A stretch of 64,000 nt of DNA from positions 2,021-66,020 of the forward strand of contig JAHFHG010000001.1 in assembly GCA_023247035.1 (NCBI GenBank). Direction: 5' to 3'. Within the stretch, counting starts at the first letter, position 1; each line of letters starts with the position of its first letter. The translations under genes and the position numbers were made by a program. Positions 21,021 to 47,996 of this stretch are shown piece by piece. A model generated the notes under the pieces. That model worked only from the letters and a program-made list of their open reading frames with translations. It did no database searches and was not told where the DNA came from. This stretch comes from Candidatus Omnitrophota bacterium. GTDB taxonomy: Bacteria; Omnitrophota; Omnitrophia; Omnitrophales; Aquincolibacteriaceae.

Positions 21021-21908
21021 ATGAAGCCACTTTTTAAATTCTTTCTTCTTTTTATCGGTATTGTGCTCCTGAGCGCTTTTCTTGCCCCGGTACTTTTCGA
21101 TTTTCTGCCCTTCAAATTCGAAAAGATATTCAACCGCCTCGTCATGATTTTTTCGGTTGCAGCCGCAATTTTTTTTGTACGGATCCGCCGCCAGACCCTG
21201 GTGAATTACGGGCTTTTAGGGAAGTCCGGAAGCCTTTCCCTGCTGCTGGTTTCCTTGGCCAGCGGGGCGGCCATTTTATTTCTGTGGGACGGGCTTAAAA
21301 TTGCCTTTGGCACGGCGGTTTGGGCCCCGGCCGGACTGGGCCCCGGCATGTGGGCAGTGGAAATTATAAAAGCGCTCAGCGCGGCTCTGATCATTGGTTT
21401 TATCGAAGAATTTTTTTTTCGCGGCGTTATTTTTTATTCTCTGAATCAAAAGATGGCCTTAAACCGATTTGCCAGTATCATGGTGACGAGTCTTTTTTAT
21501 TCCCTGGCCCATTTTGTGGATTACAAATCGCCTTTCATCGGCCCGGACCCTACTTTTTTTGACAGCCTGCGGCTGATCGCCGCCCCGTTGGAGTCGCTGC
21601 GTCACTTTAAAGAAATAGCGCCGGAAATTTTGGGATTATTTATTTTCGGCATGATCCTCAATGGAGTCCTTCTGACCACGGGGTCGCTTTACGGGCCCAT
21701 CGGGCTGCACGCGGGCTGTGTTTTTTTTCTTAAGCTCGACGGCCTTTTCATCAATTTCTTGAGCCCCAAAAACATTTTTTGGGGGAGCTCGAAAGGTTAT
21801 GACGGTATTCTGAGCTGGATTCTCTTCGGCTCTTTTTATTTCCTGTTTCAATGGATCTCGAAGAAACCGCATTCGACTCGCAAAGGAGCCGTGCCGCGCA
21901 GTGTCTAG
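21021..21908 (+). CDS. CPBP-family intramembrane metalloprotease (CAAX protease / Abi)
   Basis: EEFFFRGVIFYSL (motif 1) and FYSLAHF (motif 2) in a polytopic membrane protein. Start taken at ATG 21021. Confidence 0.75.
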   Translation: MKPLFKFFLLFIGIVLLSAFLAPVLFDFLPFKFEKIFNRLVMIFSVAAAIFFVRIRRQTLVNYGLLGKSGSLSLLLVSLASGAAILFLWDGLKIAFGTAVWAPAGLGPGMWAVEIIKALSAALIIGFIEEFFFRGVIFYSLNQKMALNRFASIMVTSLFYSLAHFVDYKSPFIGPDPTFFDSLRLIAAPLESLRHFKEIAPEILGLFIFGMILNGVLLTTGSLYGPIGLHAGCVFFLKLDGLFINFLSPKNIFWGSSKGYDGILSWILFGSFYFLFQWISKKPHSTRKGAVPRSV

Positions 21909-22527
21909 AAAATTTTCAAACCTAACCCTTGCGTTTTGCCTGCGCGGAATTTTGATCTTTAGCGGGGCAGTTTTAATTTTTCCGCCGGCTCTCCCGGCTG
22001 AGCAGTTTGAGATATGGGCCGAACATTCGGACGCCCTTTACCGTTTTCAGGAACACCTGCTTGAAGCCGAGGCCTCTGTGCTGCTGAAAGGCCGGGAGCC
22101 CCTGATCGGAACGTGGAAGGAAGACCGCTTTTATTTTCCGGAACTTACCCCGCTGGCCCAGGTGAAGCTTATTGAAGAACAGTCCCCGGAAGGAAAAGGA
22201 AAAGCCGTACGATTCAATCCTGTTGAAAAAGCCGTGCGGCGCCTCGTTTTTCACGACGTTCCGCCCGGATCGCGGCTTGATTTCTTTTACAAGGTGAGTG
22301 CGGGATCTAAAAAAGAACCGTCCCCTTATCTCTTGCTTAAGATTTTGGCGGGCCGTCATTTGATTAAAAGCATGAGAATTTTTCAACAGGATGAAAACTG
22401 GAAAAAAGAGGAAATCGATTTGGGCGTGGCGGCTTTTTTAAAGCGCCGCACGCTCGTCACGTTCGAGGTTTCTTCCGATCTTACCGAAAACCTCCTTTTC
22501 ACCTTCGCCGGCGAGATCAGGCAGTAA
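21901..22527 (+). CDS. Hypothetical secreted protein
   Basis: N-terminal signal-like segment (LAFCLRGILIFSGAVLIFPPALPA). No domain recognised. Confidence 0.4.
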   Translation: MSRKFSNLTLAFCLRGILIFSGAVLIFPPALPAEQFEIWAEHSDALYRFQEHLLEAEASVLLKGREPLIGTWKEDRFYFPELTPLAQVKLIEEQSPEGKGKAVRFNPVEKAVRRLVFHDVPPGSRLDFFYKVSAGSKKEPSPYLLLKILAGRHLIKSMRIFQQDENWKKEEIDLGVAAFLKRRTLVTFEVSSDLTENLLFTFAGEIRQ

Positions 22528-22623
22528 GGGCTTTCTTTCTAACAAGGCCTTCCCAATATCCTTACAAGCTGCACTTCCTCCTTGAACTCGGGTATTCCTT
22601 CGGCGGAAAAATTTATATCAATT

Positions 22624-22657
22624 TATAACAATTCATATCATCAAGAAAATTGTTATA
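22624..22657. promoter_or_regulatory. Perfect 10-bp inverted repeat TATAACAATT-N14-AATTGTTATA (operator-like) just upstream of the promoter of the Cys-rich repeat protein gene
   Basis: Seen directly in an AT-rich region. A TTGACT-17-TACACT promoter follows at 22663-22691. Confidence 0.35.
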
Positions 22658-22759
22658 TTTTTTTGACTCTTTAGGGATTGAAAGCTACACTTTAGTTTGG
22701 GGTTTAAAAAGAGTCCTTAGCAAAGAGAAGAGGGAAGGAGAAAGAGCCCGCTATTTTCA

Positions 22760-24181
22760 ATGCAGAATCCAAGCGAAGGCCAAAAGCAGCGGAACGCGAG
22801 CTATTTCATCGTCTTTTTGATAGCGGCCGGAATTCTTTTTTTATCCTTTTATGTTTTTGCTGAAGATCAGGCCTCTGAAAAAAAATCCTCTGAAAAATCC
22901 TCGAATGTAAAAGACGAAAAGCAGCTGCTCCCTGTTCCTCCGAGTCAAAGCAAGGGCCTTGTCGATCCTTATGGCCCAAGCTCCGAAGAGAACGCCGATT
23001 TTTTTTCATCGAATTCTGCTTTAGCGGGCCGGGCCATTTGCGGCAACGGAATCCGTGAACCCGCGGGAGGCGAAGAGTGCGACGACGGCAATCAGATTGA
23101 TGGCGATGGGTGCTCTGCAAGGTGTCTTTCTGAATTTTGCGGAGACGGTGTCGTCCAGCCTCCTGAAGAATGTGACGATGAAAATTCGGATATTAACGAC
23201 GGCTGTGCGGGCTGCAGAAGGTTCGACGGGCCACTGTGCGGAGATGGAATCGTCCAAACTCAATTCGGGGAGGAGTGTGACGACGGAAACAGGGTAAGCG
23301 GAGACGGGTGTTCCGAGAACTGCCGAAAAGAAACTTCAGCCGGCCAAAGATGCGGGGACGGCATTGTCCAGCCGCCGAGGGAAGAGTGCGACGACGGGAA
23401 TCTTGTCAGTAATGACGGCTGCAGTTTTCAATGCAAGCTTGAACGATGCGGGGACGGCGTTGTCCAGCCGCCGAGGGAAGAGTGCGACGACGGGAATCTC
23501 GTCAGTAACGACGGCTGTACTTTTCAATGCAAACTCGAACGGTGCGGGGACCTGATTGTCCAGACTCGCGAACAATGCGACGACGGAAATCAAGAAAATG
23601 GAGATGGGTGCTCTGCTCAATGTACTTTCGAGTGCGGAAACGGCACGAGGGATCCCGGTGAGGAGTGCGATGATGGGAATAGAAATTCCGGAGACGGGTG
23701 CTCCTCCGCTTGCGTTCGAGAATATTGCGGCGACGGAATCGTTCAGCAGGGCTTAGGGGAACAGTGCGACGATGGCAATACCCGGAACGGAGACGGCTGT
23801 TCCAGAGACTGCAGAACTGAAGAAGCCGTTTGCGGAAACGGAAGGGTGGAAGAGGGCGAGCAATGCGACGACGGCAACACCAACGACGGGGACGGGTGTT
23901 CTTCCGCCTGCACGAATGAGCCGGTCTGCGGAAATAGAATCGTCGAGCCTCCCGAGCAGTGTGACGACGGCAATCTCAATGACGGGGACGGATGCAGCAG
24001 GACCTGCCGGTGGGAAAGCTGCCGGAGCTACCGGGACTGCAACATGAAATGCGGAACTTACAGCATAGGCGGTGCCGTTCAGGAAGTGGCAAACGCCTGC
24101 GATAGCTGGATCGCGCAGCCGGACGGCTCCTGTGTGTGCGCGCCGTCGGCCTGCGTGTGGCGGGAATGTTTTACCGCGTAA
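22760..24181 (+). CDS. Secreted/anchored cysteine-rich repeat protein (Myxococcus-type CGDGxVQxxEECDDGN...DGCSxxC repeat, 10 copies)
   Basis: N-terminal hydrophobic anchor, then a Ser/Lys-rich linker, then ten 32-36-aa Cys-rich repeats. Two adjacent 96-bp units (23349-23444 and 23445-23540) are about 94% identical at the DNA level. Confidence 0.8.
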   Translation: MQNPSEGQKQRNASYFIVFLIAAGILFLSFYVFAEDQASEKKSSEKSSNVKDEKQLLPVPPSQSKGLVDPYGPSSEENADFFSSNSALAGRAICGNGIREPAGGEECDDGNQIDGDGCSARCLSEFCGDGVVQPPEECDDENSDINDGCAGCRRFDGPLCGDGIVQTQFGEECDDGNRVSGDGCSENCRKETSAGQRCGDGIVQPPREECDDGNLVSNDGCSFQCKLERCGDGVVQPPREECDDGNLVSNDGCTFQCKLERCGDLIVQTREQCDDGNQENGDGCSAQCTFECGNGTRDPGEECDDGNRNSGDGCSSACVREYCGDGIVQQGLGEQCDDGNTRNGDGCSRDCRTEEAVCGNGRVEEGEQCDDGNTNDGDGCSSACTNEPVCGNRIVEPPEQCDDGNLNDGDGCSRTCRWESCRSYRDCNMKCGTYSIGGAVQEVANACDSWIAQPDGSCVCAPSACVWRECFTA

Positions 24182-24263: not shown

Positions 24264-25667
24264 ATGAAAAACTCTTCAAGAAGCAATCCCTTATTTTTAT
24301 TCTTTTTCCTGGGCTTTATCGCGCTTCTTTTTCTCAGCTTGGGGGCGGATTTCCCCGGCCATTTCAAGGCCAGAATTTTATACGGGACTTTTTTATTGAT
24401 TTTTTTCCTGTTCCTTCGGTGGAAAATCGAATGTCGGAATTTTATTTTTATCCCTCTGGCGGCATTCCTCATTTTTCAAATCGTGCGCTTCCTCGGGGCG
24501 ATTTACAGCCTTTACTTCATCCCTACGGAGAACGCAGCGGCCGTTTTATTCGCAATTCAGGCCCGTTCTCCTCTCCGCTGGATTTTTTATTTCGCTTTTT
24601 TCCTCCTGGCCTACTCTTTCTTCAAACAGCGAGAGTCCGTTTCGGCCCTGGTGAAAGGCATGAGTTGGTTTGGATTTTTTTTGGCGTTAAACGCCATCCC
24701 TCCGCTTCTCCACAACGGAAGTTTTGGATACTTGATCGAGGGAAATGAGCTTCGGTTTTTCCATCCCGTTTTTTATTTTCATCCCTGGGCGTCTCACTAT
24801 GTCCTCGCGGTCCTCACGCATTCGAATTTTCTGGGCGATATTATGGCCTTCGGCTTCTTCCCCGCGCTGGGGCTCGCCTTTTATTCCTTCCGCTCCCTTG
24901 AAAGCAAAGACAGAGAGGATGCGGAATCTGCAGACAGGAAGGATAGAAAACGCGCCATTTTCAGTTCTTTGCTGCTTTATATGATCTTAGGTTTCGTGAT
25001 CGGCGCGGCCGTCTTCCTTCTTTTTTCACGCGGCACGATCGCTTTTTTCTTCATCTCATCTTTTTTCTTCCTTGCCGCGTGCCTTTTGAAATTTCCTTCC
25101 CGGCCGCAGCTTATTTTTACGCTTTCAGTTCTGATGATCGGAGGGGCATTTTTTTTCTGGGGAGGAAATTTGGAGAAGGCGTGGAAGGAAGTCCAAACTT
25201 TACAAAAGGAAGCGGACCCGAAAACGCGCCGGAGCTTTGCGACGAACGTTGAGGGCTGGAACCGGGCCTTGCGCATTTATAAAGCCTATCCGGTATTCGG
25301 AGCGGGCACGGGAGGTTACGGCGCCGTCGCTAAACGGTTCGCTGCGCCGGGGCTTGAAAAGAGTGACCCGCTTGCAGATTTTCAAACGATGTGCCATTAC
25401 ATTCAGGTCCTGGCCGAAGAAGGCGCCGGCGCTTTTTTTTATTATTCATTTATCCTCGTCTATCTGTGGCAGATGACGAAAGGTCTGTTTACCACGCGAA
25501 GCCGGTTTAAATTTTTAACGGGCCTTTCTCTTTTCGCTCCCGTGCTCCTTATTTTGGGCCACGCATCCATTAATGACCTGATGGAGCGTTTCTCCACGTC
25601 GATGCTGGTTTACATCACGATGGGCGCGGGCCTTGCCGTGCTCCGGAAGGATTTCGGGCATCCATAA
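24264..25667 (+). CDS. O-antigen ligase-like (Wzy_C) polytopic membrane protein
   Basis: About 11 TM segments plus the PVFGAGTGGYGAV motif of O-antigen ligase/polymerase family periplasmic loops. Confidence 0.7.
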   Translation: MKNSSRSNPLFLFFFLGFIALLFLSLGADFPGHFKARILYGTFLLIFFLFLRWKIECRNFIFIPLAAFLIFQIVRFLGAIYSLYFIPTENAAAVLFAIQARSPLRWIFYFAFFLLAYSFFKQRESVSALVKGMSWFGFFLALNAIPPLLHNGSFGYLIEGNELRFFHPVFYFHPWASHYVLAVLTHSNFLGDIMAFGFFPALGLAFYSFRSLESKDREDAESADRKDRKRAIFSSLLLYMILGFVIGAAVFLLFSRGTIAFFFISSFFFLAACLLKFPSRPQLIFTLSVLMIGGAFFFWGGNLEKAWKEVQTLQKEADPKTRRSFATNVEGWNRALRIYKAYPVFGAGTGGYGAVAKRFAAPGLEKSDPLADFQTMCHYIQVLAEEGAGAFFYYSFILVYLWQMTKGLFTTRSRFKFLTGLSLFAPVLLILGHASINDLMERFSTSMLVYITMGAGLAVLRKDFGHP

Positions 25668-26466: not shown

Positions 26467-27789
26467 TTATTCTTGAATCTTAAACGAGCTTTTAATATCT
26501 TTTTTAACCGCGGTCTTCACCTCGGTGGTAGCGCTCATGCAATCAAAATAATCTGCGAAATCTCTTTTTGCGTTCGAAACGCCCGCCAGGGAAATCGCAA
26601 GCAGGGGAAATCGGATCATGATTTCCTCGCCGGTTTCCGTTAACCGCCGGCGGTCCAGGTGGAGCGTATGGCCCCGCTCAAGGTCCTCTTTTTTATAGAG
26701 CGTACGGACCACTTCTTCGTCGAATTGTCTGCAAAGCATTTCCCCCAGCGCCGCGGCCTGCTGCGGACGCGTTATAAGGATGAAGTCATCTCCTCCCTGA
26801 TGTCCTATGAAATCGTCGGCGGCGCCTTTGGCCCGGACCATTTTCTTGATAAGTTCAGCCGTCCTTTTAATGGCCTCGTCTCCTTTAGCAAGGCCGAAAT
26901 GGTCGTTGAAGACCTTAAACCTGTCCAAATCCGCGTGGAAGAGGACGAATTTCTGGTGCTCATAGATCCTTTTCTGAACCTCACGGAAAATTCCCTGGTT
27001 TCCGGGAAGCCCCGTCAGCGGATTGGCATCTTCAGCGTGTTTTCTGATGGTCTGAAGAGTTTCGCTCATCCGGTTAAACGTATGCGCCAGCAGCTCGATC
27101 TCATCCCCGGTTTTGATCCCGACATGTTGCCCTAAATTTCCTTTCATGATTTCTTGAGTCGCTTTGTTGAGAGCCTGGATGGGTTTGACAATCGATTGGG
27201 CAAGTCCATGCCCGATCGCGATTCCCGTCAACAAGATAAAAAAAAGCATGACCAGAAGAGAGCGGCGGGACCGGACCAGCGCGTCTTTAATGCCCGCCAG
27301 GGAGAATGTAACGCGCGCCACGAGAATGAGATGGGGGTCTGTTTGCAGGGGAATGTAAGCGGTTAATCTTTTATTTTTTCGGTCGACCACCTTCCAATAA
27401 GATGCCCCGGATTGCGCTCTTTGGCGAAGACTTCTTTCGATAGGCTCTTCGGAAGGAAGAAACGAATCAGAGTTTTTGTCTAAAATTGGATTTTTTTCAA
27501 TGGCGTTGAAGATTTCAATATCCAAAACCCCGTAAGCGCTTTTCATGTCCTCGATTTTTCGCTTCAGGGTTAAAAGGTCGGAAGGAAGCCCTTCTTTAAA
27601 TTCCTGCTCCAGGATTCCCTGAATACGCTCAAAGGCCCATTGACTTTCAATGCGGTGGAGCTCGTTTAACGTGTTGATCTGGTTTGTAAGCTGGAGGGCC
27701 GTAATGGTGCTCCCAAGAATAAAAAGGGGAAAACAAAGCCTTAACATGATCCTCATGAAGAGGGATATTTTAGGCGTGTATTTTTTCAT
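26467..27789 (-). CDS. Membrane sensor diguanylate cyclase (HAMP + GGDEF domain with a GGDDF variant motif)
   Basis: GGDEF domain core NPLTGLPGNQ...DLDRFKVFNDHFGLAKGDEAIK...HQGGDDF. One N-terminal TM segment and a HAMP-like linker. Confidence 0.8.
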   Translation of the reverse strand: MKKYTPKISLFMRIMLRLCFPLFILGSTITALQLTNQINTLNELHRIESQWAFERIQGILEQEFKEGLPSDLLTLKRKIEDMKSAYGVLDIEIFNAIEKNPILDKNSDSFLPSEEPIERSLRQRAQSGASYWKVVDRKNKRLTAYIPLQTDPHLILVARVTFSLAGIKDALVRSRRSLLVMLFFILLTGIAIGHGLAQSIVKPIQALNKATQEIMKGNLGQHVGIKTGDEIELLAHTFNRMSETLQTIRKHAEDANPLTGLPGNQGIFREVQKRIYEHQKFVLFHADLDRFKVFNDHFGLAKGDEAIKRTAELIKKMVRAKGAADDFIGHQGGDDFILITRPQQAAALGEMLCRQFDEEVVRTLYKKEDLERGHTLHLDRRRLTETGEEIMIRFPLLAISLAGVSNAKRDFADYFDCMSATTEVKTAVKKDIKSSFKIQE

Positions 27790-27887
27790 AACTCATTTAA
27801 ATATAAATAGTTCATTGACGTCTCGCACAACTTTTTTAAGGCCAGCGTTTCATAAAAAGAATATATCATTTATGATCATTTGACAAT

Positions 27888-29852
27888 ATGTTCTATCATA
27901 AGTTATCTTCTTATTGTAAAAACATCTTTTTAAAAACTATTAAAAATTCAAGGAAGAGCAATTTGAAGCATCTTCGGCGACTTTTTATTTTTGCCGCTAT
28001 TTTGTGCCTGCCCGTCGTTTTCTTTTCGCTCTATACCCATTTTCTTTTGGATTATTCATTAGACAGCCTTGAGTTTGCGCTCCAGATGACGCACAGAAAA
28101 CCTGAAGAGGTATCGACGCTCGGCCGCAAAGTTTATCATTCGGTCGTCAAGGATCTGATCCTTGAAGAGGCCTTCGCGGAAAATGTGAATTATGAAAATT
28201 TGGCGCTGCTTGAATTGACGGCGAGATCTTTCAATGAGTCCCTGGGGCGCCAGGGTTATAAAAACGCGGAACTTTATCTGAATGAGATTGTAAAAAATAA
28301 GTTGCCCGGCCGTCACCCGATCCTGCGCTTCCTGGATTTTCTGTACCTGCGTTTTTTAGATCTCCACCGTTCCTTTTCCTCATTTATGGAATATCAAAAC
28401 GCGCGCAAAGCCGCTAAGAAACAAGCGGCAAGCCCGGCGCTTGAGTATTCAGGAAGCCTTCTTTTAACTCAGGCCCAGGCGAGCGAAGAAAAAAAAGATT
28501 TGGCCAAGGCCCTGGAACTCTACAGAGAATATTTAAAGTTTTATCCTAAAAGCCCGGACCGCGGTTTTGTGCAAGTTTCCATAAGCCAAATCCTGATTCA
28601 GCAGAAAAGATTTTACGAGGCCGAGAACTTGCTTGAGGATGTCCAAAACAATTTTAAGGGGCAGCATGAGGCTGAGATTTCACAGCGCCTTTTGAGAAAA
28701 ATCGAGATCCTCAGGAAGCGGCAAAAATGGGCCAAAGAATTGGAGCGCCTCCTCCTCAAACCGGAATCCCGCAACGATCTCGAAAGCGAATTTTTAGACC
28801 TCAAACTGAAGCTGGGCATTTCCTATTTTTCTCTTTATGAATTCGAACGCTCCAAAGAGATCTTCGAGGCCTTGAGCAAAAGCCGTGAGGCCCGGATCAG
28901 GCAGAAAGCTCAATTTTATCTTGCGTGGCTCTACAAACAGAATGCCGATTTTAATCAAGGCGAAAAAGTCATCCTCGGCCTCCTGAAGGATCCGCTCCTG
29001 GATGAGCAAATGAATTTGGGGCTCCACGCCGGACTTGCAGATATTTATTATCAGCAGAAGGATATCCCCAAAGCCCTTGCGCAATATGAAGATCTCTCCC
29101 AAAAGATTCAAAAGAAAAGTTTAAATCACAGGGCCATTTATGAAGCCTGGGCTGCGCTGGCAGAATTGGAGCAGGCCATGATTTATTTTTATGATTTTTC
29201 GAGCTTGGAGGAAACCCAGAAGCATCTCAATCTCGCAAAACTGTTTACCTTCGCCCTTTCGGATTTTGATTTCGAGACGATGTTAAAGACCCATGAAAAT
29301 ATGAGTCTCCGGGATTACGCTTTTTCTCTCTTGTTTCAAAGAAAAGTGACCCTTGCCTTCGAAGTATTTAAAAAACACCTGGAGCGTCATCCCGAAGATG
29401 CCTGGGCGCATTCGGGCATTGCAACCGTTCATATGTTGATGGGGGATATGAATGAGGCCCGGCGTTCCGCGCAGAAGGGGTACAAACTCAAAGGCGACGA
29501 ATATACCGCTTCCGTGCTTGCCTACCTTTACAGTTTGCGCCAGAAAGATAAAACGGCGCTCATTCTTTATACGAAAGCCGTCCGCTGGAATCCCGAATAC
29601 CTCATTGCGCGATTTAACCTCGGCTGCGTTTATCTCAAATTAGAAAGATTCGAAACAGCGATTCAAGCGTTTGAGAAAATAGACCGTGCGCTGCCCCTGC
29701 ATCGTTATATGCGCGCAAAAGTATTCAACAATATGGGCTACGCGTACTGGGGCTTGGGCCGTCAGGACAAGGCCGTGGAAAAGTTTAAGGAAGCCCTGGC
29801 CTTGAGCGCGAAATCCCAAACCGCGAAAGACAATTTGGAGCAGCTTCAATGA
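27888..29852 (+). CDS. Membrane-anchored TPR-repeat protein (PrsT-like, first gene of polysaccharide export module 1)
   Basis: 654 aa with an N-terminal TM segment and multiple TPR-like helical repeats (AxxYxxxG patterns). Confidence 0.65.
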   Translation: MFYHKLSSYCKNIFLKTIKNSRKSNLKHLRRLFIFAAILCLPVVFFSLYTHFLLDYSLDSLEFALQMTHRKPEEVSTLGRKVYHSVVKDLILEEAFAENVNYENLALLELTARSFNESLGRQGYKNAELYLNEIVKNKLPGRHPILRFLDFLYLRFLDLHRSFSSFMEYQNARKAAKKQAASPALEYSGSLLLTQAQASEEKKDLAKALELYREYLKFYPKSPDRGFVQVSISQILIQQKRFYEAENLLEDVQNNFKGQHEAEISQRLLRKIEILRKRQKWAKELERLLLKPESRNDLESEFLDLKLKLGISYFSLYEFERSKEIFEALSKSREARIRQKAQFYLAWLYKQNADFNQGEKVILGLLKDPLLDEQMNLGLHAGLADIYYQQKDIPKALAQYEDLSQKIQKKSLNHRAIYEAWAALAELEQAMIYFYDFSSLEETQKHLNLAKLFTFALSDFDFETMLKTHENMSLRDYAFSLLFQRKVTLAFEVFKKHLERHPEDAWAHSGIATVHMLMGDMNEARRSAQKGYKLKGDEYTASVLAYLYSLRQKDKTALILYTKAVRWNPEYLIARFNLGCVYLKLERFETAIQAFEKIDRALPLHRYMRAKVFNNMGYAYWGLGRQDKAVEKFKEALALSAKSQTAKDNLEQLQ

Positions 29853-31321
29853 ACTCGATAGGCGAAACAGCGCGGGAGCGGCGGGCCGTGAGATTCTCTA
29901 AAGGAATCAGGATCCTCTCGAAGGCCGCGGCGGCCGGCCTGATCCTTTTTGTCACCGCGCCCAAGCCGGCCGAAGCCATTGTCGGAAAGGCCGAAGAATA
30001 TGATCCTTTCGAGCAAGAAGCCCTGGAAGAATTTCAAAGGTCTCTGACTCTGGAAGACCGCGGCCGGGATAAGGTCCAGGAATCTCTTGAGGCCTTGGAG
30101 AAAAAACAAAAGGAGATCAAGACGGCCGCCAAAGGAAAGCGGAAGGATTCTATGGAAAAGGAAATTGAAAGCTTGAAACAGCAAATTTTAAAAATCCCCA
30201 AGCGTGACCGCCTTCTTTTTGAAATCAATGGACAGCATATTTATGAATCCAACGTTGAGCGCCGTACCCCCCACTACGAGAAAGGGGACTCTATTTTTGA
30301 TCTCAGGCCGACGGCGATTGTGGATCTTTCCGGAAAGAAGACGGACCTGCGCCTGGAGCTGGCGGGAGGCAAGCAGTGGAACATCAAATTTCCGGTCAAA
30401 GATTTTTGGGAAGGTTCGGAGAGGATACGCTACCGCAGAAGGTATTTCAAAAAGGTCCACCAGGCGATCAATTCCAAGATTGCGCGCCACAGCAGCAAAA
30501 CGGTTGAAGTCAATCAGACCCGCGTCCGGTGGGACTCGGACCAAGTCCATACGGTCAATCTTGCGCTTTCGAAGAAGTTCTCCATCAATAATGACACAAG
30601 CCTGTTGCACCGGCAGTTTACGCACGAAAATTTTGATCAGGATTCCAACTGGCAATTTACGGAAGCCCCCAGCCTCTTTTTCCACCTCACGCCGAAGAGC
30701 CGGATTTCGGCGGGCTATTCTTTTGGCGCAAGCCGTATCCGCAGCAAGGCAGGAGACGCCAACGCGCACGAGGTGCACCTGGGCTATTTCGGAGCGGTGA
30801 CCCGGAAATCCTCGGTCAGCTTTGATGCGGCCTTTTCTCACCAGACACCCCGGTCCCGGGAAACCAGCAGGACAAACACTTATAAAACCGGCGTCGGGTA
30901 TATTTGGCAAATGACCCCGAAGAGCCAAATGGTGGTCCAGCTTATTCGTTCCCTGCAGGATTCGACCTCCGAGACCGTAAGCAGCACGGCTTCCACAAAT
31001 AGCGCGCCCCAGGCCGAGAAAACAGATACTCACTTTATCAATGAGAGCCTTTCCATTTCTTTGAATTCCCGTTTGACGAAAAAATTCACGACTATTTTTA
31101 CAGTCAACGGCGCCCATTTTAAGAGCAAGGTCCAAAAGGGCGGGGACAAGAGCAGTGAAAGCCAGCAGTGGAGTTTGCCCATTACCTTGACGCTCATTTA
31201 CTACCTGCGCCAATGGATGACGCTCACGGCAGACTATACCTTTTCTTACCGGAGAGGCGATGCCAAAGCGGATGAATATCGAGACCATATTCTCAAATCA
31301 TCCCTGCGGATGATTTTTTAA
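29849..31321 (+). CDS. Predicted outer-membrane beta-barrel protein of the polysaccharide export module
   Basis: Signal peptide ending AEA, a coiled-coil N-terminus, and alternating amphipathic beta-strand pattern. The C-terminal ...SLRMIF ends in an aromatic residue. 4-nt overlap with the TPR gene. Confidence 0.5.
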   Translation: MNSIGETARERRAVRFSKGIRILSKAAAAGLILFVTAPKPAEAIVGKAEEYDPFEQEALEEFQRSLTLEDRGRDKVQESLEALEKKQKEIKTAAKGKRKDSMEKEIESLKQQILKIPKRDRLLFEINGQHIYESNVERRTPHYEKGDSIFDLRPTAIVDLSGKKTDLRLELAGGKQWNIKFPVKDFWEGSERIRYRRRYFKKVHQAINSKIARHSSKTVEVNQTRVRWDSDQVHTVNLALSKKFSINNDTSLLHRQFTHENFDQDSNWQFTEAPSLFFHLTPKSRISAGYSFGASRIRSKAGDANAHEVHLGYFGAVTRKSSVSFDAAFSHQTPRSRETSRTNTYKTGVGYIWQMTPKSQMVVQLIRSLQDSTSETVSSTASTNSAPQAEKTDTHFINESLSISLNSRLTKKFTTIFTVNGAHFKSKVQKGGDKSSESQQWSLPITLTLIYYLRQWMTLTADYTFSYRRGDAKADEYRDHILKSSLRMIF

Positions 31322-31337
31322 AAAGGAGGTTTTTGCG

Positions 31338-31979
31338 ATGAAACGAGCGGAATATTTTTTGGGGGGACTCCTCTTCATGTGCCTCATGAGGAATCCGGCG
31401 TTGTTTGCCGGGCCGCAATCGGCGGACGCATCCCTTTTGGCAAGTAAAAAGGAGGTGGAAAAAGCCTACGTGCTGGAGGCCGGGGACCGGATTCGCGTTA
31501 AAATTTATCCCGACGATCCGTTTATCAGGGGCGGGGATATGCAGATCAGCTCCGACGGAAACATTACGCTTTCTCTTCTCGGCAAAGTTCATGTCGAAGG
31601 AAAGCCCGTGAATGAAGTCGAGAGATTACTCTCGGAGAAAATTGATCAGGATTACATTGTCAGCCCCGAGGTGGTGATTGAAGTTTTGCAATTTAGAGAA
31701 AAAAGTGTCGTGCTCCTGGGGGAAGTGCGAAAACCCGGGACCTATCCGTTTCCGCAAGGCGCGACCCAAATGACTTTGCTCGAAGCCGTTTCGCTGGCCG
31801 GCGGATTTTCGGATATTGCGAATATTAAAAAAGTTAAAATCATCCGAAAGCGCGCCGAAGGGACGGGGGAAGTGAAGGAAATCCTCCACGCCAATGCGGA
31901 AGCGATCATTAGCGGTGAACAAGAGGACGTGCCTCTTGAGTCCGGAGACGTCGTTCACGTTTCCGAAAGCCTGTTTTAA
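31338..31979 (+). CDS. Polysaccharide export protein, Wza/EpsE-like (short form)
   Basis: Signal peptide and Poly_export/SLBB motifs (GDRIRVKIYPDD, ISSDGNITLSLLGKVHVEGK, GDVVHV). Confidence 0.8.
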   Translation: MKRAEYFLGGLLFMCLMRNPALFAGPQSADASLLASKKEVEKAYVLEAGDRIRVKIYPDDPFIRGGDMQISSDGNITLSLLGKVHVEGKPVNEVERLLSEKIDQDYIVSPEVVIEVLQFREKSVVLLGEVRKPGTYPFPQGATQMTLLEAVSLAGGFSDIANIKKVKIIRKRAEGTGEVKEILHANAEAIISGEQEDVPLESGDVVHVSESLF

Positions 31980-32052
31980 CGGAGGTTCCATAAAAGAATC
32001 GTGGAAAGAAAACAGAACCTTGCCGATACATTCTTAAATTGAGTTTCAGCTT

Positions 32053-33858
32053 ATGAAAGACGAACGTGTCATAGCCAGCTACGGTTACGTTGAAGACGTC
32101 GAAAAACCGATCGACTACAAATATTACTTCTTCCTCTTCAAAAAGAACTTCTACATTGTTTTTACCTTTTTTATTATTTGCGTGACGCTTGCGGGAATGT
32201 ATGTCTCCAAACTCCCCACGCAGTACCAAGCGATCACTCAAGTGCTTATCGAAAGGCCGCCGGCTCCTTGGAAAGAGGACTCGCCCTCAGGCCCTGAGTC
32301 GGCTGCGGGAAGCTGGCCCTTGGATTATTACAGCACCCAAATGGAGATTATGCGCAGCCCGGCCGTTTTAAGGCAGGTGGAAGAAGAACTGCAGCTTTCC
32401 AATTACTTTGGAGTGGACAATCCGGATTTAGCGGTGGTGAAAATTCGGGAGATGGTTTTCATCCAGCGTGTCGCAGAGAGCCGTCTTTTTAATATTTTTG
32501 CCAGATTTCCGGAAGCCCAAATGGCGGCCAAAGCCGCTAATGCCGTGGCGCGGGCCTATATCCGGAAGAATTTTGAAAACGCTCTTTATTATTCCAAGGA
32601 AATCCTGGGCTGGCTTCCTCAAAAAGGCCGGGAAGAAGAGATGGTTACCATTGAGGATCCCTTCGGAGGGATGAGGCAGATTTCCCGCCACGAACTTGTC
32701 GAAAGCCTTCCCTCGATCCGGACCGACCCCACGTTACGCAGCTTGAGAGAAAAGAAAAGCGCGCAAGAAGCGGAACTGGCCGCGCTTCTCAAACAATACC
32801 GCGAGAAACACCCTCTTCTTGTCAAGGCCCGCGCGAATCTGAAATTTCTTGAAGAAAGCATCGAAGCGGAAAAAATGAGGATTATCGAGGGCCTCAAAAC
32901 CCAGGCCGAGGGCCGCCACCAGGCCGGCTACGCCAGAATTATTGAAGAAGGCAAAATTCCCAAAGCGCCGCTGCCCGTCGACCGGGGAAGAATTATTTTC
33001 CTCGTCGGACTGGGCGATCTGCTGGTGAGTTTCATCCTGATTGTCCTGATTGATTACTTTGACGACACGATCCGAACGGTCGAGGATTTTGAGCGCAGGG
33101 GGCTGATTCTTCCGTTCTTAGGCCCGATTCCTTTGGTGAAGAAGAAAAATTGGGAAATCGATAAAGAAAACATTTCAGGTTATTACGGAAAGAATCCGGA
33201 CATTGCCGAAGCCTTCCGCTACCTGCGCGTGGCGATCAATTTTTCCGGCTCGCCGGAGGCTTTGAAAATCCTTGTCTTTTCAAGCTGTCTTCCGCACGAA
33301 GGCAAGAGTTTTACGTCTCACAATATTGCCATTTCCCTGGCCCTTGATGGAAACAGGACTCTCCTGATCGACGCGGATCTCCGCCGCCCTATTTTGCACC
33401 AGACCTTCCAGGTGGAAAATTCTTCAGGGCTTTCGAACTATCTTACAAGCAAGGTGGAGTTTCAGTCTGTGATCAGGGAATCCTTCGTGGATAATTTGTT
33501 TCTTGTCGTCAGCGGGCCGATGTCTCCGAATCCCGGGGAAATTTTAGGCTCGGACCGGATGAAACAGTTCCTCGAAGAGGCCAGGGACAGCTTTGACCGT
33601 ATCATTATTGATTGCCCGCCCCTGACCGGGATCGGCGACGGCTACGTCGTCGGCAGTTTGATCGGCCAGCTGATTCTTGTTGTGGCTGCGGGCAAAACGC
33701 CTGCCGACCTTATTAAGCATACCCAAAAACAGCTCGAGAAAGCTCACGTGAAAGTGATGGGTTCGGTCCTGAATATGGTGGACCTTGAAAAAGAACGCTA
33801 CAGCGGCTACTCCAAACATTATTACAGTACCTACACCCGCTATTATAAGCAGGATTGA
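32053..33858 (+). CDS. Wzc/GumC-like polysaccharide co-polymerase fused to a BY-kinase P-loop ATPase domain
   Basis: Two TM segments flank a periplasmic coiled coil. The C-terminal CapB-like domain has a Walker A variant (SCLPHEGKSFTSHNIAISLA), LIDADLRRP, and a Walker B (IIIDCPP). Confidence 0.8.
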   Translation: MKDERVIASYGYVEDVEKPIDYKYYFFLFKKNFYIVFTFFIICVTLAGMYVSKLPTQYQAITQVLIERPPAPWKEDSPSGPESAAGSWPLDYYSTQMEIMRSPAVLRQVEEELQLSNYFGVDNPDLAVVKIREMVFIQRVAESRLFNIFARFPEAQMAAKAANAVARAYIRKNFENALYYSKEILGWLPQKGREEEMVTIEDPFGGMRQISRHELVESLPSIRTDPTLRSLREKKSAQEAELAALLKQYREKHPLLVKARANLKFLEESIEAEKMRIIEGLKTQAEGRHQAGYARIIEEGKIPKAPLPVDRGRIIFLVGLGDLLVSFILIVLIDYFDDTIRTVEDFERRGLILPFLGPIPLVKKKNWEIDKENISGYYGKNPDIAEAFRYLRVAINFSGSPEALKILVFSSCLPHEGKSFTSHNIAISLALDGNRTLLIDADLRRPILHQTFQVENSSGLSNYLTSKVEFQSVIRESFVDNLFLVVSGPMSPNPGEILGSDRMKQFLEEARDSFDRIIIDCPPLTGIGDGYVVGSLIGQLILVVAAGKTPADLIKHTQKQLEKAHVKVMGSVLNMVDLEKERYSGYSKHYYSTYTRYYKQD

Positions 33859-33934: not shown

Positions 33935-33963
33935 TTGACATTGAAATTGAAAATGGGATAATG
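33935..33963 (+). promoter_or_regulatory. Sigma70-like promoter upstream of nifS (TTGACA-17-ATAATG)
   Basis: TTGACA at 33935-33940 and ATAATG at 33958-33963. Confidence 0.35.
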
Positions 33964-38991: not shown

Positions 38992-39750
38992 ATGAAAAAA
39001 GAATCAAAAAATTTTTCCCTTCCGGAACTCCGGCATGATGGCGAGCGTTTTTGGAAGGGCCAGAAAATGCTTGTCATTTCTCCCCACCCGGATGATGAGG
39101 CGTTCGGCTGCGGCGGCACAATGGCCAAGGCCAAGGCGCTGGGCTGTGAAGTCTATTTGATGGTATTTTCAGTTGGGGACCTGAATTTTTTCGAGAAGAA
39201 AAAGTGGGTCACAGCCCGGGAGCGTCTGCAAGAACTTAAGAAGGTTTCGAATATCCTCGGCTTAGACGGCTGCGAGGTTTTGTATACGGACGCGAAAACT
39301 CATCTGCGGCTTGACGCCATTCCCAGGCGGGATCTCATCGCGAAAATAGAGACGGAAAGCTCGGTTTCTTTAAACCGCATCCGCCCGACGATCCTTGCAA
39401 TCCCCGCGCCTTCTTATAATCAGGATCATGAAGCCGTCTTTAAAGCAGGCCTTGCGGCCGCGCGCATTCACGCCGGAGGAATCAAGGCCAACCCGCCGGC
39501 CGTTCTGGTTTACGACAGTCCGACGCTTTCGTGGAACGAAGCGGGGCGCGAATTCCGGCCGAATTTTTACGTGGACATTTCAGATTATTTGGAGATCAAA
39601 TTAAAATTGATCCGCACCTATTCCTCCCAGCGGCGCCATCCGAACGATCCCGCGAGTCTTGAAAGCCTGGAGGATCTTACCCGCGCGCGGGGAAGGGAAG
39701 CGGGGCGCGCTGCCTGCGAGGCTTTTGAAGCCCGCCGGCTTATTTTTTAG
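38992..39750 (+). CDS. PIG-L/LmbE-family N-acetylglucosaminyl deacetylase
   Basis: LVISPHPDDEAFGCGGTMAKA zinc-binding motif and a downstream HxDH motif. Confidence 0.8.
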   Translation: MKKESKNFSLPELRHDGERFWKGQKMLVISPHPDDEAFGCGGTMAKAKALGCEVYLMVFSVGDLNFFEKKKWVTARERLQELKKVSNILGLDGCEVLYTDAKTHLRLDAIPRRDLIAKIETESSVSLNRIRPTILAIPAPSYNQDHEAVFKAGLAAARIHAGGIKANPPAVLVYDSPTLSWNEAGREFRPNFYVDISDYLEIKLKLIRTYSSQRRHPNDPASLESLEDLTRARGREAGRAACEAFEARRLIF

Positions 39751-39752
39751 AA

Positions 39753-40475
39753 ATGCTTCTGACGGGGCATCAGCCGAACTACCTGCCTTATTTGGGCTTT
39801 TTCCACAAAATTTATCACGCCGGTATGTTTGTGATTGTAGACAATGTCCAGTTCGTCAAGCGGGGGCCCTTCGGCTGGATGAACCGGAACAAGATCCGGA
39901 CGGCGGAAGGCGCCCGGTGGCTGACGGTTCCGGTCCTCGTCAAAGGGAAGTTCGAGCAGCAAATCAAAGATACGAAAATTAATACGGCCCTGCCCTGGGC
40001 GAGAAAACACTGGAGAACGCTCGCGCGGAGCTATTCCAAAGCGCCCTACTTTACGCGATACGCCGATTTTTTTGACGAAACCTACAACAAAAAAAAATGG
40101 GAGAACTTTTGTGATTTGAGTACGCACCTTATTTTTTTTCTTCTTAAAGCTCTGGGGATAGACAGACCGGTCAAGATCGCCTCAGAGCTTGGAGGGCGCG
40201 GAAAAGGGGACGATCTCATTTTGGATCTCTGTGAGAAAACGGGCGCCGACGCGTACCTGCACGGCAAGCACGGTGCGGATTATATCGATGAGGAAAAATT
40301 CAGGGCGCGCGGCGTCGGGTGCGCGTATCAAAATTTCGAACATCCTGTTTACCGCCAGCAGCACTTGCCTTTTCTTTCGCATTTGTCCGTCGTGGATCTG
40401 CTTTTTAATCACGGCGCGGAAAGCCTGGAAATTTTATTGGGCCGGAAAATTTATTCTGAGAAAAAAATTTCATGA
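39753..40475 (+). CDS. WbqC-like family protein
   Basis: MLLTGHQPNYLPYLGFFHKI N-terminus is diagnostic of the WbqC family found in O-antigen loci. Confidence 0.7.
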   Translation: MLLTGHQPNYLPYLGFFHKIYHAGMFVIVDNVQFVKRGPFGWMNRNKIRTAEGARWLTVPVLVKGKFEQQIKDTKINTALPWARKHWRTLARSYSKAPYFTRYADFFDETYNKKKWENFCDLSTHLIFFLLKALGIDRPVKIASELGGRGKGDDLILDLCEKTGADAYLHGKHGADYIDEEKFRARGVGCAYQNFEHPVYRQQHLPFLSHLSVVDLLFNHGAESLEILLGRKIYSEKKIS

Positions 40476-41515
40476 ATACGGCCTGGCTGTGGGCTTATCT
40501 TCGAGTTTTTGGAGCGGCAGTTTTAATCACGCTGGTCCTCACGCCTTGTGTCCGCTGGCTTGCTCCCAAGCTGGGTGCGATGGACCATCCTTCTGCAGTG
40601 AAGATTCATTTAAGGGCTACGCCGAGGCTGGGAGGCGCCGCTATTTTTTGCGGTTTTCTCATCAGCCTTTTAGGCCTGGGGATCATTACCGAAAGCCAGA
40701 AAGGGGTCCTGATCGGAGCCATTCTCGCGCACGGGATTGGATTTCTTGACGACACGCGCTCGGTTCCGGCCGCGATCAAACTTGCCGCCCTTTTTGTAAT
40801 TACCGCGTTCCTGGCCCGCTCCGGCGTGATGGTCCACCTTTGCCCTTTCCCGGTTGTCAATTTTATCCTCACGCTTTTGTGGATTGTGGGAGTCACAAGC
40901 GCCTTCAACGCAATGGACCATATGGACGGATTGGCTGCAGGACTGACCTTCTTCGCTTCGCTTGCTTACGCGTATGTTTCTTTTCAGAACGGGCAGTGGG
41001 CTTGGGGCCTTATGTCCGTGGCCTTGATGGGAAGCAGCCTGGGATTTCTTGCCTATAATTTCCCGCCCGCCTCCATTTTTATGGGAGATTCAGGAAGCTT
41101 TTTTCTGGGATACCTTTTGGCGGCGATGAGCATTATGGGCATTTGGTCGACGAATCCCATGAAATCAATGTTCGTCCCCGTTTTTATTTTGGGCCTGCCC
41201 ATCTTTGACTTGATTTATACGGTCATTCGCAGGCAGCGGAACCGGGTCACCCGATCCTTGAATCAAATTGTGACTTTCAGCGGCAAGGATCATTTCTCCC
41301 ACCGCCTCCTCAAAATGGGGATGACACAGCGCCAAGCGCTTTTTTTCAGCTACGCGGCGGCCTTTGCCTTGAGCCTCGGAGCCGTGACGATCCGCTACGT
41401 TTTTAAAGTGGAGGCGATCCTGCTGGCCGTTCAATACCTGATCACTATTTTTTTGATCGTGATCCTGATGGAATTCGTTGACAGAAAGTCAAAAAAGCCG
41501 ATAGAATCCCGTTAA
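40472..41515 (+). CDS. Polyprenyl-phosphate N-acetylhexosamine-1-phosphate transferase (WecA/MraY glycosyltransferase family 4)
   Basis: Conserved DDxxD-like loop (GFLDDTRS), the NAMDHMDGLAAG motif, and 10-11 TM segments. Confidence 0.8.
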   Translation: MNTAWLWAYLRVFGAAVLITLVLTPCVRWLAPKLGAMDHPSAVKIHLRATPRLGGAAIFCGFLISLLGLGIITESQKGVLIGAILAHGIGFLDDTRSVPAAIKLAALFVITAFLARSGVMVHLCPFPVVNFILTLLWIVGVTSAFNAMDHMDGLAAGLTFFASLAYAYVSFQNGQWAWGLMSVALMGSSLGFLAYNFPPASIFMGDSGSFFLGYLLAAMSIMGIWSTNPMKSMFVPVFILGLPIFDLIYTVIRRQRNRVTRSLNQIVTFSGKDHFSHRLLKMGMTQRQALFFSYAAAFALSLGAVTIRYVFKVEAILLAVQYLITIFLIVILMEFVDRKSKKPIESR

Positions 41516-42321
41516 TGTATCTCGCCTATTGGGGATTTAACGAGGAGCCCTTTCAGAACACTTCCGACCCAAAATTTTTTTGTTTCTCCGAGCAGCATGA
41601 AGAAGCTCTAAGCCGCCTCCGGTACGCGGTTCAGGAATATAAAGCCTGCGCGCTTTTGACGGGTATTTTCGGCTCGGGGAAGACGCTTCTGGCGCAGACG
41701 CTTTTGGACAATCTTCCGCCGGACAAGTTTGCGCGCGCGTTTATTTTTAATCCTCAGTTGAATTCCGTTGAAATTTTAAGAGAAATCATTTATCAGCTTG
41801 GAATCCACGACAACCTTCCGGAACAAAAAACCGATATCCTTCACCGCCTAACGGATATTTTAAATGACAATTACGCGGAGGGAAGGCACACCGTGATTAT
41901 CGTGGATGAAGCCCACTTGATCGAGGACCGGCTTCTTTTTGAGGAACTGCGCCTGCTTTTGAATTTTCAAAAGCGCGATAAATTTTTGCTGACGCTCATC
42001 CTGATCGGACAGCCCGAGCTGCGCGACAAAATCACGCATCTGAAACCCTTTGATCAAAGGGTTTCGATCCGCTTTCATCTTAAGGGCCTTACCCTTGAAG
42101 AAACCAAGGCTTATATCCTCCACAGGCTGCGCGTGGCGGGAGCCGCCCGCCCTATTTTTGAAGAAGAAACGTTTACGGCCATTCACGAATCCACGGGCGG
42201 AATCCCCCGGCGCATCAACCAAGTCTGCGACCTGGCCCTCTTGGCCGGTTTTGGGATGAAGGCCCAGGAGATTAATGTTTCGATTATCCAGGAAGTGGTT
42301 ATGGACCCTCAGACTTTATGA
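41515..42321 (+). CDS. ExeA/GspA-like AAA ATPase (PEP-CTERM-locus putative secretion ATPase type)
   Basis: Walker A GIFGSGKT, Walker B VIIVDEAHL, and the N-terminal FGFNEEPF motif typical of the ExeA-like family. Confidence 0.7.
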   Translation: MYLAYWGFNEEPFQNTSDPKFFCFSEQHEEALSRLRYAVQEYKACALLTGIFGSGKTLLAQTLLDNLPPDKFARAFIFNPQLNSVEILREIIYQLGIHDNLPEQKTDILHRLTDILNDNYAEGRHTVIIVDEAHLIEDRLLFEELRLLLNFQKRDKFLLTLILIGQPELRDKITHLKPFDQRVSIRFHLKGLTLEETKAYILHRLRVAGAARPIFEEETFTAIHESTGGIPRRINQVCDLALLAGFGMKAQEINVSIIQEVVMDPQTL

Positions 42322-42342
42322 GCAGCAGAGGAGATTTGAAAA

Positions 42343-43923: not shown

Positions 43924-43970
43924 CGCCTTTCTTCAATCCGCAATCCTTGAAGCCCCGGCCTGTAGAGGAA

Positions 43971-47228: not shown

Positions 47229-47231
47229 GAT

Positions 47232-47996
47232 TTAGAAAGACACGAGGAGGCCCGGCCTTCCGGCATTCATCGTAAGGCTTTCCGGCACAATCGTGGCGTT
47301 GAGATTCAGGCGCCGGATCAATGCCGCAAGTTCTTTTTCCGAAAAAATAAGCGTCTTGGCGGTCTTGCCGAAAGTCCGGTAGTCGCCGCCGGAAAAATAA
47401 TTTTCGAGAACGCCTTCCTTAAAGAGTTTATAGAGATAACCTTCTCGAAGTCCCAGCAGGATAGACCGAAGCGCGTCTCCGAAGGACTGCCAAGGGTTTC
47501 TGCTTAAAGGGATATCCGCGATGAGCAAACGCGCGCCGGGCCGCGCAATTCGTTTGGCATTTTGGATCATGTTTTCAATTTCCCGGATATTCCGGTAGTA
47601 CTGGACGACGCTGACAAAAAGGAACAGGGTGAAATTTTTTTTGCAGAAATCGAAGTCCGTATAATCGCCTTCTATTTGCCGGACGGTGACGTTTGCAGAG
47701 GCCCTGCAATTTTTCTTGCACATTTCCACGAAGCGCGGCGAAGTATCCAGCGCGTGAAGGCTCTTTACGTGCGGCGCGAGGAGGGATTCCAAATGGCCCG
47801 TCCCGCAGCCGACTGTCAGGACCTCATCTTCAGGTTGAAGGGCGACAACGGCTTTGAAGCGGTTGAAGAAAATTCGCGCGTTGATCTCCCACAATTCGGA
47901 GGAGGTCCAAAACTGGTCCTGATTCCAGTATTCGATCCAGCCGGAAGGGATCTCAGGCGGCGCATTGGATTTGGCATTCAAGACGGAGGGCGTCAT
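47232..47996 (-). CDS. Class I SAM-dependent methyltransferase
   Basis: Motif I (VLTVGCGTGHL) and an acidic motif II. Start set at internal ATG 47996 (MTPSVLNAK) to avoid a 105-nt overlap with the upstream gene. Confidence 0.6.
   Translation of the reverse strand: MTPSVLNAKSNAPPEIPSGWIEYWNQDQFWTSSELWEINARIFFNRFKAVVALQPEDEVLTVGCGTGHLESLLAPHVKSLHALDTSPRFVEMCKKNCRASANVTVRQIEGDYTDFDFCKKNFTLFLFVSVVQYYRNIREIENMIQNAKRIARPGARLLIADIPLSRNPWQSFGDALRSILLGLREGYLYKLFKEGVLENYFSGGDYRTFGKTAKTLIFSEKELAALIRRLNLNATIVPESLTMNAGRPGLLVSF

Follow-up and report, generated by a model that had tools for sequence, protein, structure and literature searches.

The 64 kb stretch of Candidatus Omnitrophota DNA analysed here (the window) carries four co-directional genes at 27888-33858, an operon which probably encodes a composite Class-3 translocon for polysaccharide, made of a short OPX (outer membrane polysaccharide export) protein and an outer-membrane beta-barrel and served by a polysaccharide co-polymerase of type 2a (PCP-2a) with a bacterial tyrosine kinase (BY-kinase) domain. 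The remaining gene of the operon encodes a tetratricopeptide repeat (TPR) protein, and a membrane-bound GGDEF protein, called the cyclase below, is encoded divergently from it. The family scans with Pfam and NCBIfam covered the window open reading frames (ORFs) of at least 150 aa. ORF and domain calls bear out what an earlier sequence-only reading gave for the coordinates of the five genes, for their order (TPR protein, barrel, Wza-like protein, Wzc/BY-kinase) and for the GGDDF motif of the cyclase, and the four-part architecture of TPR protein, outer-membrane barrel, short OPX protein and PCP/BY-kinase is real. The same reading saw in these genes the core of an exosortase-type locus, which is weighed further below. 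The features are:

26467-27789, minus strand: predicted membrane sensor cyclase with HAMP and GGDEF domains (Pfam), 440 aa
27790-27887, no strand: divergent spacer of 98 bp, AT-rich (28% GC), with presumed divergent promoters
27888-29852, plus strand: TPR protein of 654 aa, matched by multiple TPR families of Pfam
29849-31321, plus strand: outer-membrane barrel of 490 aa, assigned by its structure model, no Pfam or NCBIfam match
31338-31979, plus strand: OPX protein of 213 aa with Poly_export and SLBB domains (Pfam)
32053-33858, plus strand: PCP-2a/BY-kinase fusion of 601 aa, with Wzz and P-loop matches in Pfam and TIGR01007 in NCBIfam
24264-25667, plus strand: Wzy_C-family membrane protein of the polymerase or ligase type (Pfam Wzy_C, E 8e-9)

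OPX proteins that lack an outer-membrane helix are the commonest class and pair with 18-stranded outer-membrane barrels such as EpsX/Wzp and VpsM, with which they form a composite translocon (PMC9601211, PMC9603273). The contacts within one such system, WzaB-WzpB-WzcB, were demonstrated by Mellouk et al. in 2026 (PMC12819527). Schwabe et al. (PMC9601211) recognise these systems by an OPX protein of at most 280 aa and an adjacent barrel, and Saidi et al. (PMC9603273) define Class 3 by the domains D1 and D2. The window OPX protein has 213 aa with Poly_export (D1, residues 40-116) and SLBB (D2, residues 122-208) as its only Pfam domains, and it ends at residue 213. Since this leaves no room for an outer-membrane helix, the protein is unable to span the outer membrane itself. 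An 18-stranded outer-membrane barrel is expected to be encoded no more than five genes away from the OPX protein; here the barrel gene is directly adjacent, at a distance of 16 bp.

The OPX protein has a Sec-type signal peptide without a lipobox and the C-terminus ...VSESLF. Its closest solved relative is PDB 9N9A, to which it aligns from end to end (...GDVVHVSESLF and ...GDIVFVPESFF at the C-termini). We presume that 9N9A is WzaB of Myxococcus xanthus, as RYVRR at positions 85-89 of the chain agrees with Arg103-Arg107 of this protein and the terminal SFF with its Ser202-Phe204 (PMC12819527). Both secretion and the binding of WzpB, the porin, depend on the last three residues of WzaB, Ser202-Phe203-Phe204 (PMC12819527), and the aromatic C-terminus ...ESLF that aligns with them in the window protein is a candidate docking tail of the same kind. 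Glu-Ser-x-Phe-COOH is conserved in 27 of the 28 orthologue rows taken from the related loci, where L003 and L025 are one contig counted twice, and the exception, L028, ends at a contig edge. In two deep-branching relatives the tail reads ETFF or ETLF. The OPX orthologues of the deep branch (L032, 11434-12090; L033, 5686-6360) bear a lipobox, LSGC or SLGC, so OPX lipidation differs between the lineage of the window and the deep-branch lineage.

The sequence-only reading had made its beta-barrel assignment conditional on structure prediction, and the assignment survives it. An AlphaFold2 model built on an alignment of 43 homologues (A1) has a mean predicted local distance difference test (pLDDT) score of 86.2 and 18 strands over residues 122-489; the single-sequence model was uninformative (pLDDT 36). 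The signal peptide is followed by helices at 53-92 and 97-114, a helical or coiled-coil periplasmic segment of about 60 residues (53-114), and the C-terminal residue is Phe, as is common among outer-membrane proteins. A Foldseek search of the Protein Data Bank (PDB) with the model returned outer-membrane barrels exclusively, with matches of 16-18 strands, among them the 18-stranded OccK/Opd porins, AlgE (alginate) and PgaA (poly-N-acetylglucosamine).

The barrel family is narrow, as its profile finds 98 of 1.84 billion representatives at E <= 1e-3 and 27 at E <= 1e-30. Among 50 full-length distant relatives that were scanned, 47 are matched at E <= 0.01 by BBP2_2 (Pfam: PF10082), 38 by EpsL (TIGR03014) and 36 by TIGR03016. 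Aligning the family profile with the profile of this distant-relative set in hhalign gave a probability of 100% and an E-value of 4.8e-49 over the whole barrel. At the level of profiles this shows a superfamily shared with EpsL and TIGR03016, not membership of either family, and judged by these comparisons the window barrel is a divergent branch of the BBP2_2 superfamily to which both belong. Syntenic barrel orthologues of the deep branch are recognised directly by PF10082. A barrel family which Pfam and NCBIfam do not recognise is thereby tied to the BBP2_2/EpsL/TIGR03016 superfamily.

The last gene of the operon encodes a PCP-2a protein with a cytoplasmic BY-kinase, as seen from its Wzz domain, from a TIGR01007 score of 182.8 bits (cut-off 108.05) and from a C-terminal tyrosine cluster, GYSKHYYSTYTRYY, which is kept in the orthologues as GYSKHYYxTYxRYY. 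Its PDB matches are Etk, Wzc, CapAB and VpsO. The Wzy_C-family protein at 24264-25667 is probably the associated polymerase. In L002, L004, L032 and L033 a Wzy_C-family gene lies either upstream of or directly after the PCP gene, which does not imply orthology to the window copy. The identity of the PCP protein over the mapped loci is 48-62%, comparable with 53-64% for NifS. As both are similarly conserved and lpxD and a SurA-like gene lie nearby, one may speculate that the cargo is a core surface glycan and not a facultative biofilm matrix. Sugar-modifying genes and a phosphoglycosyl transferase at 38992-49582 are, among the loci compared, found in this genome only.

The TPR protein is predicted to consist of an inner-membrane anchor and a periplasmic TPR domain, given its single N-terminal transmembrane (TM) segment and the positive-inside rule. 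In the orthologues the one N-terminal TM segment is followed by a conserved FL(V/L)DYSLESLE motif. The comparison with the PDB gave generic TPR similarity only, and a specific relation to AlgK, BcsC or PgaA is unsupported by sequence. The stop codon of the TPR gene overlaps the start codon of the barrel gene as ATGA, and natural single-chain fusions of TPR and BBP2_2 domains occur among the distant barrel relatives (P0274 and P0241). This translational coupling and the fusions support a functional link between both proteins, in which the TPR protein is presumed to be a periplasmic scaffold. In the export models cited here, the presence of a TPR protein marks a pathway as synthase-dependent, and such a partner is absent from current Class-3 OPX models.

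We mapped the window proteins by tblastn onto 27 related loci. The named homologues come from metagenome-assembled genomes of Candidatus Omnitrophota and from one labelled Verrucomicrobiae. The order of minus-strand cyclase gene, TPR, barrel, OPX and PCP gene was found in every related locus whose contig is long enough, that is in about 20 species-level genomes and two deep-branching ones. Conservation of this order speaks against a chance arrangement. The cyclase gene is divergent from the TPR gene wherever it is visible, the deepest branches included, and the three loci without it start inside or at the TPR gene. In relatives whose barrel is found by the profile at only E ~1e-24, the gene order is the same, the cyclase has GGDDF, and a Wzy_C gene follows the PCP gene; the barrel of these relatives is recognised as BBP2_2. 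The conserved stretch upstream comprises mqn genes, ubiE, ridA, a CPBP protease, a 208-aa protein and one or more DUF4215 genes, with Wzy_C and a hydrolase in some loci; downstream come Wzy_C in some loci and then nifS, apbC, folE, lpxD (minus strand) and the SurA-like gene (minus strand). The five-gene module thus appears to be inherited vertically and to belong to the core of the phylum, unlike a mobile exopolysaccharide (EPS) island, and it extends the OPX/beta-barrel paradigm of 2022 to an uncultivated phylum as a core trait and not as an accessory island.

The cyclase consists of a TM segment, a periplasmic region of about 140 aa, a second TM segment, a HAMP domain (residues 196-246) and a GGDEF domain (257 to about 440). 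Both domains score above the Pfam cut-offs, HAMP with 54.1 and GGDEF with 55.2 bits. The signature ...GHQGGDDFILI... deviates from the canonical [G/A/S]G[D/E]E[F/Y], and the sequence-only reading had taken this deviation as a possible sign of a receptor rather than a cyclase. All 120 homologues listed, which are 44-77% identical to the window cyclase, have GGDD[F/Y] (GGDDF in 111, GGDDY in nine), and 114 of the 120 have the pattern DxDxFKxxNDxxGxxxGD. This uniformity points to selection on the active site. Aligning DLDRFKVFNDHFGLAKGD of the cyclase with DIDHFKPVNDTYGHLAGD of the diguanylate cyclase 3IGN shows conserved D, N and D, so the cyclase retains Asp for metal binding as well as Asn and Asp for contact with guanine. 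We take them to be the equivalents of D327, N335 and D344 of PleD. Having Asp and not Ser at the guanine-specifying position, the protein would be expected to make cyclic di-GMP (c-di-GMP) and not cyclic GMP-AMP (cGAMP) of the Hypr type. No RxxD I-site is present at its place, which is five residues upstream of GG: the window tetrapeptide is AADD, the homologues have SKDD, APDD, GEDD and others, and none of the 15 commonest variants has Arg in the first position. Degenerate GGDEF receptors of the PelD/PopA type bind c-di-GMP through this very site. A GGDDF enzyme, GSU1937 of Geobacter sulfurreducens, makes both c-di-GMP and cGAMP (PMC8835794). The receptor reading is therefore disfavoured by the invariant motif, the retained substrate and metal residues, the missing I-site and the active GSU1937, and the most economical reading of the sequences is an active variant cyclase which would escape product inhibition.

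Several observations weigh against the reading of the five genes as a c-di-GMP-controlled polysaccharide exporter. The window OPX protein and most of its orthologues have no lipobox cysteine, which is compatible with Class 3 because about 30% of Class-3 OPX proteins are non-lipoproteins (PMC9603273). The twin arginine of the presumed WzaB that contacts the PCP (Arg106-Arg107, in the loop touching WzcB) aligns to Val-Ser. The fold search in the PDB does not favour polysaccharide porins over other outer-membrane barrels, and the comparison of the window barrel itself with PF10082, TIGR03016 and EpsL gave nothing at E <= 0.01. The conserved block includes a Wzy_C-family gene but none for a glycosyltransferase, Wzx flippase or ABC exporter, and Pfam found no c-di-GMP receptor (PilZ, I-site, MshEN) in the operon proteins. 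Moreover, the surroundings of about 20 kb (ubiE, ridA, nifS, apbC, folE, lpxD) are syntenic across the phylum, and since these housekeeping neighbours are as syntenic as the cyclase, its adjacency is weak evidence of functional coupling. Whether the cyclase is coupled to the export operon is in our view finely balanced, with the scales tipping slightly towards no, while c-di-GMP control of the operon is a reasonable inference.

Three other explanations compete with that of a composite translocon next to an active cyclase. According to one, the GGDDF protein is no working cyclase or is not tied to the operon, being a degenerate sensor or receptor or a mere neighbour in a frozen gene order. The departure from the canonical motif fits this, as do GGDDF-EAL proteins such as PA3258, reported to have no cyclase activity (PMC8835794), and the Pfam GGDEF match, which spans only profile positions 5-108 of 161 owing to an insertion after the motif. 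That unrelated housekeeping genes are as syntenic and that the divergent spacer is poorly conserved and has no riboswitch also speak for a neighbour. We nevertheless hold this explanation to be unlikely, given the invariant motif, the conserved active-site segment and the missing I-site described above, the products made at the GGDDF site of GSU1937 and the head-to-head arrangement kept in all loci. According to another, TPR protein and barrel together make up a translocon for proteins or lipoproteins, Slam-like (type XI) or of another kind, which is unrelated to the OPX and PCP proteins. In its favour, one homologue bears the name "DUF560 domain-containing protein", a few have faint PF04575 matches, TPR orthologues show faint TPR_Slam matches, and genes for a CPBP protease and for a secreted protein with Cys-rich repeats lie upstream. 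Slam barrels have 14 strands and the modelled barrel has 18, SlipAM is matched in seven of the 50 distant relatives at E <= 0.01, against 47 for BBP2_2, and not in the window barrel, a gap of 16 bp separates the barrel gene from the gene of an OPX protein with an invariant porin-docking tail, and the secreted DUF4215 protein has neither a lipobox nor a C-terminal sorting tail; we regard this explanation as extremely improbable.

The third is a genuine exosortase/PEP-CTERM module for EPS, with the exosortase and its substrates encoded elsewhere in the genome. After Haft 2006 (PMC1569441), the defining parts of a PEP-CTERM system are an exosortase, PEP-CTERM proteins and PrsK/PrsR. Speaking for such a module, the best curated NCBIfam matches of the TPR protein (PrsT), of the OPX protein (EpsE and pepcterm_export), of the kinase (pepcterm_TyrKin among the best) and of a distal ATPase belong to XrtA/XrtB-associated families, and EpsL and TIGR03016, the curated subfamilies of the barrel superfamily, are proteins of exosortase loci. 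The scores are far under the cut-offs, with 69 bits for PrsT (cut-off 312.2), 71.8 for pepcterm_export (180), 76.6 for EpsE (262.65), 135.8 for TyrKin (230.65), 42.8 for ChnLen (278.85) and 223.7 for TIGR03015 in the ATPase (324.5). Neither exosortase family (TIGR02602, Pfam: PF09721) was found in the window ORFs of at least 150 aa or, for five syntenic loci, among the genes called there (those with Pfam calls; the named set is L001-L004, L032 and L033). A crude regular expression for PEP-CTERM-like tails, run on all stop-to-stop ORFs of the window and of the locus flanks, gave none in the window, and its two matches in about 27 loci were short ORFs judged spurious. As to PrsK/PrsR, the scanned window ORFs had no match to a domain of histidine kinases or of sigma-54 activators, and housekeeping genes flank the block in every genome. 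Literature searches brought up nothing relevant that connects Omnitrophota to exosortase or to c-di-GMP and polysaccharide export. Taken together, an exosortase module appears improbable, less so than a Slam-like translocon, and none of the findings requires an exosortase.

The exosortase-type core proposed by the sequence-only reading hence stands in part: the components resemble those of exosortase loci and the barrel superfamily is shared with EpsL and TIGR03016, whereas all PEP-CTERM models stay below cut-off and the ATPase is unlinked. Its statement that the window holds no exosortase or PEP-CTERM substrate agrees with the empty family scans and tail screen. It left open whether the locus is incomplete or a variant. 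The locus is a complete, apparently vertically inherited block between housekeeping genes, which speaks against incompleteness; it can be called a variant, namely of the composite OPX/barrel system. The "ExeA-like" AAA_22 ATPase (41515-42321), which had been counted to the module, does not belong there. It lies 7.7 kb downstream, behind nifS, apbC, folE, lpxD, the SurA-like gene and three sugar genes, in an operon of its own with PIG-L, WbqC, a GT4 phosphoglycosyl transferase and an HD-GYP protein, and it is adjacent to the module in none of the related loci. The HD-GYP (HD_5) gene directly follows the ATPase gene at the end of this sugar operon (41515-43923), and the pair, which other genomes do not have linked to the module, could be another unit related to cyclic dinucleotides.

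For the composite translocon, which we prefer, the following mechanism may be proposed. The PCP-2a/BY-kinase in the inner membrane would couple polymerisation to export, with the Wzy_C-family protein as the probable polymerase. The OPX protein with its domains D1 and D2 would form a periplasmic conduit, and its C-terminal Glu-Ser-x-Phe would dock on the putative outer-membrane pore, the 18-stranded barrel of the BBP2_2 family, at its periplasmic rim. The TPR protein, anchored in the inner membrane, may serve the assembly as a periplasmic scaffold or guide, a role that TPR proteins have in synthase-dependent systems and PrsT presumably has in exosortase loci. If the HAMP-GGDD[F/Y] cyclase is active and escapes product inhibition, it would generate a local c-di-GMP signal through which, by way of an effector, production or export would be controlled.

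The composite Class-3 systems EpsY-EpsX-EpsV (WzaX/WzpX/WzcX) and WzaB/WzpB/WzcB of M. xanthus and VpsN/VpsM/VpsO of Vibrio cholerae (PMC9601211, PMC9603273, PMC12819527) share with the window operon a short Poly_export and SLBB OPX protein, an adjacent 18-stranded barrel and a PCP-2a BY-kinase with a tyrosine cluster. Presumed WzaB and the window OPX protein align end to end and both have a C-terminal Ser-x-Phe tail. Unlike WzaB, the OPX proteins of the window lineage have a plain signal peptide and Val-Ser in place of the twin arginine. The window operon furthermore differs from the Class-3 systems in the inner-membrane-anchored TPR protein coupled to the barrel, in the helical periplasmic N-terminal segment of about 60 residues and the BBP2_2 lineage of the barrel, and in the GGDD[F/Y] cyclase, which always adjoins the Omnitrophota module.

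The same four export parts are also found in the XrtA/XrtB loci, which have PrsT, a TIGR03016/EpsL barrel, pepcterm_export/EpsE, ChnLen/TyrKin (EpsF/EpsG) and the TIGR03015 ATPase (PMC1569441). Unlike these, the window shows no exosortase, PEP-CTERM protein, EpsI or PrsK/PrsR, its ATPase is unlinked, a single protein combines PCP and kinase, and the regulator is presumably the cyclase and not PrsKR/sigma-54. Periplasmic TPR domains and outer-membrane barrels of 16-18 strands likewise occur together in the synthase-dependent exporters AlgK/AlgE, PgaA, BcsC and PelB/PelC. Control by c-di-GMP is typical of these exporters, and AlgE and PgaA are among the fold matches of the window barrel. In contrast to them, the window operon has an OPX and a PCP protein and no synthase, PilZ or PelD-type receptor, and its TPR protein is TM-anchored, separate and without specific similarity to AlgK, BcsC or PgaA. 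GSU1937, a membrane-bound Hypr GGDEF protein (PMC8835794), resembles the window cyclase in its GGDDF motif conserved in the family, in its membrane anchor and in having no EAL or HD-GYP domain. The window cyclase differs in its Asp, instead of the Hypr Ser, at the position equivalent to PleD D344, in its HAMP linker and in its Omnitrophota lineage.

We tentatively suggest, as a possible though doubtful combination of all these points, a single-copy core translocon of Omnitrophota which unites TPR protein and barrel, as in synthase-dependent pathways, with OPX and PCP/BY-kinase proteins, as in Wzy-dependent ones, which would be an exosortase-free relative of the PEP-CTERM systems and hard-wired to active, product-uninhibited GGDD[F/Y] cyclases. 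If true, just one other active GGDEF enzyme with a GGDD motif would be known besides this cyclase family, which would be the first with the motif invariant in all its members. With GGDD[F/Y] in 120 of 120 members and otherwise intact active sites, the family offers a clean test of whether catalysis tolerates an exchange of Glu for Asp in the signature. Overall, the findings refine the annotation and supply testable cases, and they do not overturn the current understanding.

Within the operon, the barrel and OPX genes are 16 bp apart, and 73 bp separate the OPX gene from the PCP gene. The kinase gene is followed by a T-run and then by a strong sigma-70-like promoter ahead of nifS (33935-33962: TTGACA, 16 nt, TG, GATAAT; 11 of 12 matches), and we therefore place the end of the export operon at 33858. 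Apart from this promoter, the promoter and terminator scans gave nothing above the expectation from shuffled sequences. The spacer between the cyclase and TPR genes has weak matches to the promoter consensus, none of which exceeds those in shuffles. It contains no Rfam family and no riboswitch, and a search for a conserved operator gave a faint AT-rich motif. The equivalent divergent spacers of the relatives are 71-452 bp long and little conserved in sequence. Inside the barrel gene, an antisense ORF of 366 aa (30188-31288, minus strand) has an odd composition and no gene call on the matching ENA contig, and it is almost certainly spurious.

At 21024-24181 the window encodes a CPBP/Rce1-like intramembrane protease, the conserved 208-aa protein and then the secreted DUF4215 protein. 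The last is Cys-rich and acidic, with 10 repeats and with neither a C-terminal sorting tail nor a lipobox. This group lies upstream of the module in most loci (L002-L004, L009, L011-L013, L016 and L031). DUF4215 matches occur up to five in tandem (L011 and L013), and in L002 and L004 the CPBP protease is part of proteins of 658-740 aa. We considered the CPBP protease and the DUF4215 protein as a myxosortase-like pair in place of an exosortase and rejected it for now, since the scores are weak, 33 bits for MrtS and 23 for Mrt_core, and the DUF4215 protein has neither a C-terminal TM segment nor a basic tail.

There is also a second OPX/PCP pair in the window, at 50129-54274. Its OPX protein has 416 aa, with an N-terminal extension of about 210 residues before Poly_export and SLBB, and its PCP/BY-kinase has 663 aa and a GNVR domain. 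Ahead of the pair lies a divergent ORF of 248 aa without a family match, and no neighbouring barrel was recognised. Across the whole 64 kb, no tRNA, tmRNA or Rfam family was detected. The cumulative GC skew climbs steadily over the window and most genes are on the plus strand, which is consistent with a position within one replichore.

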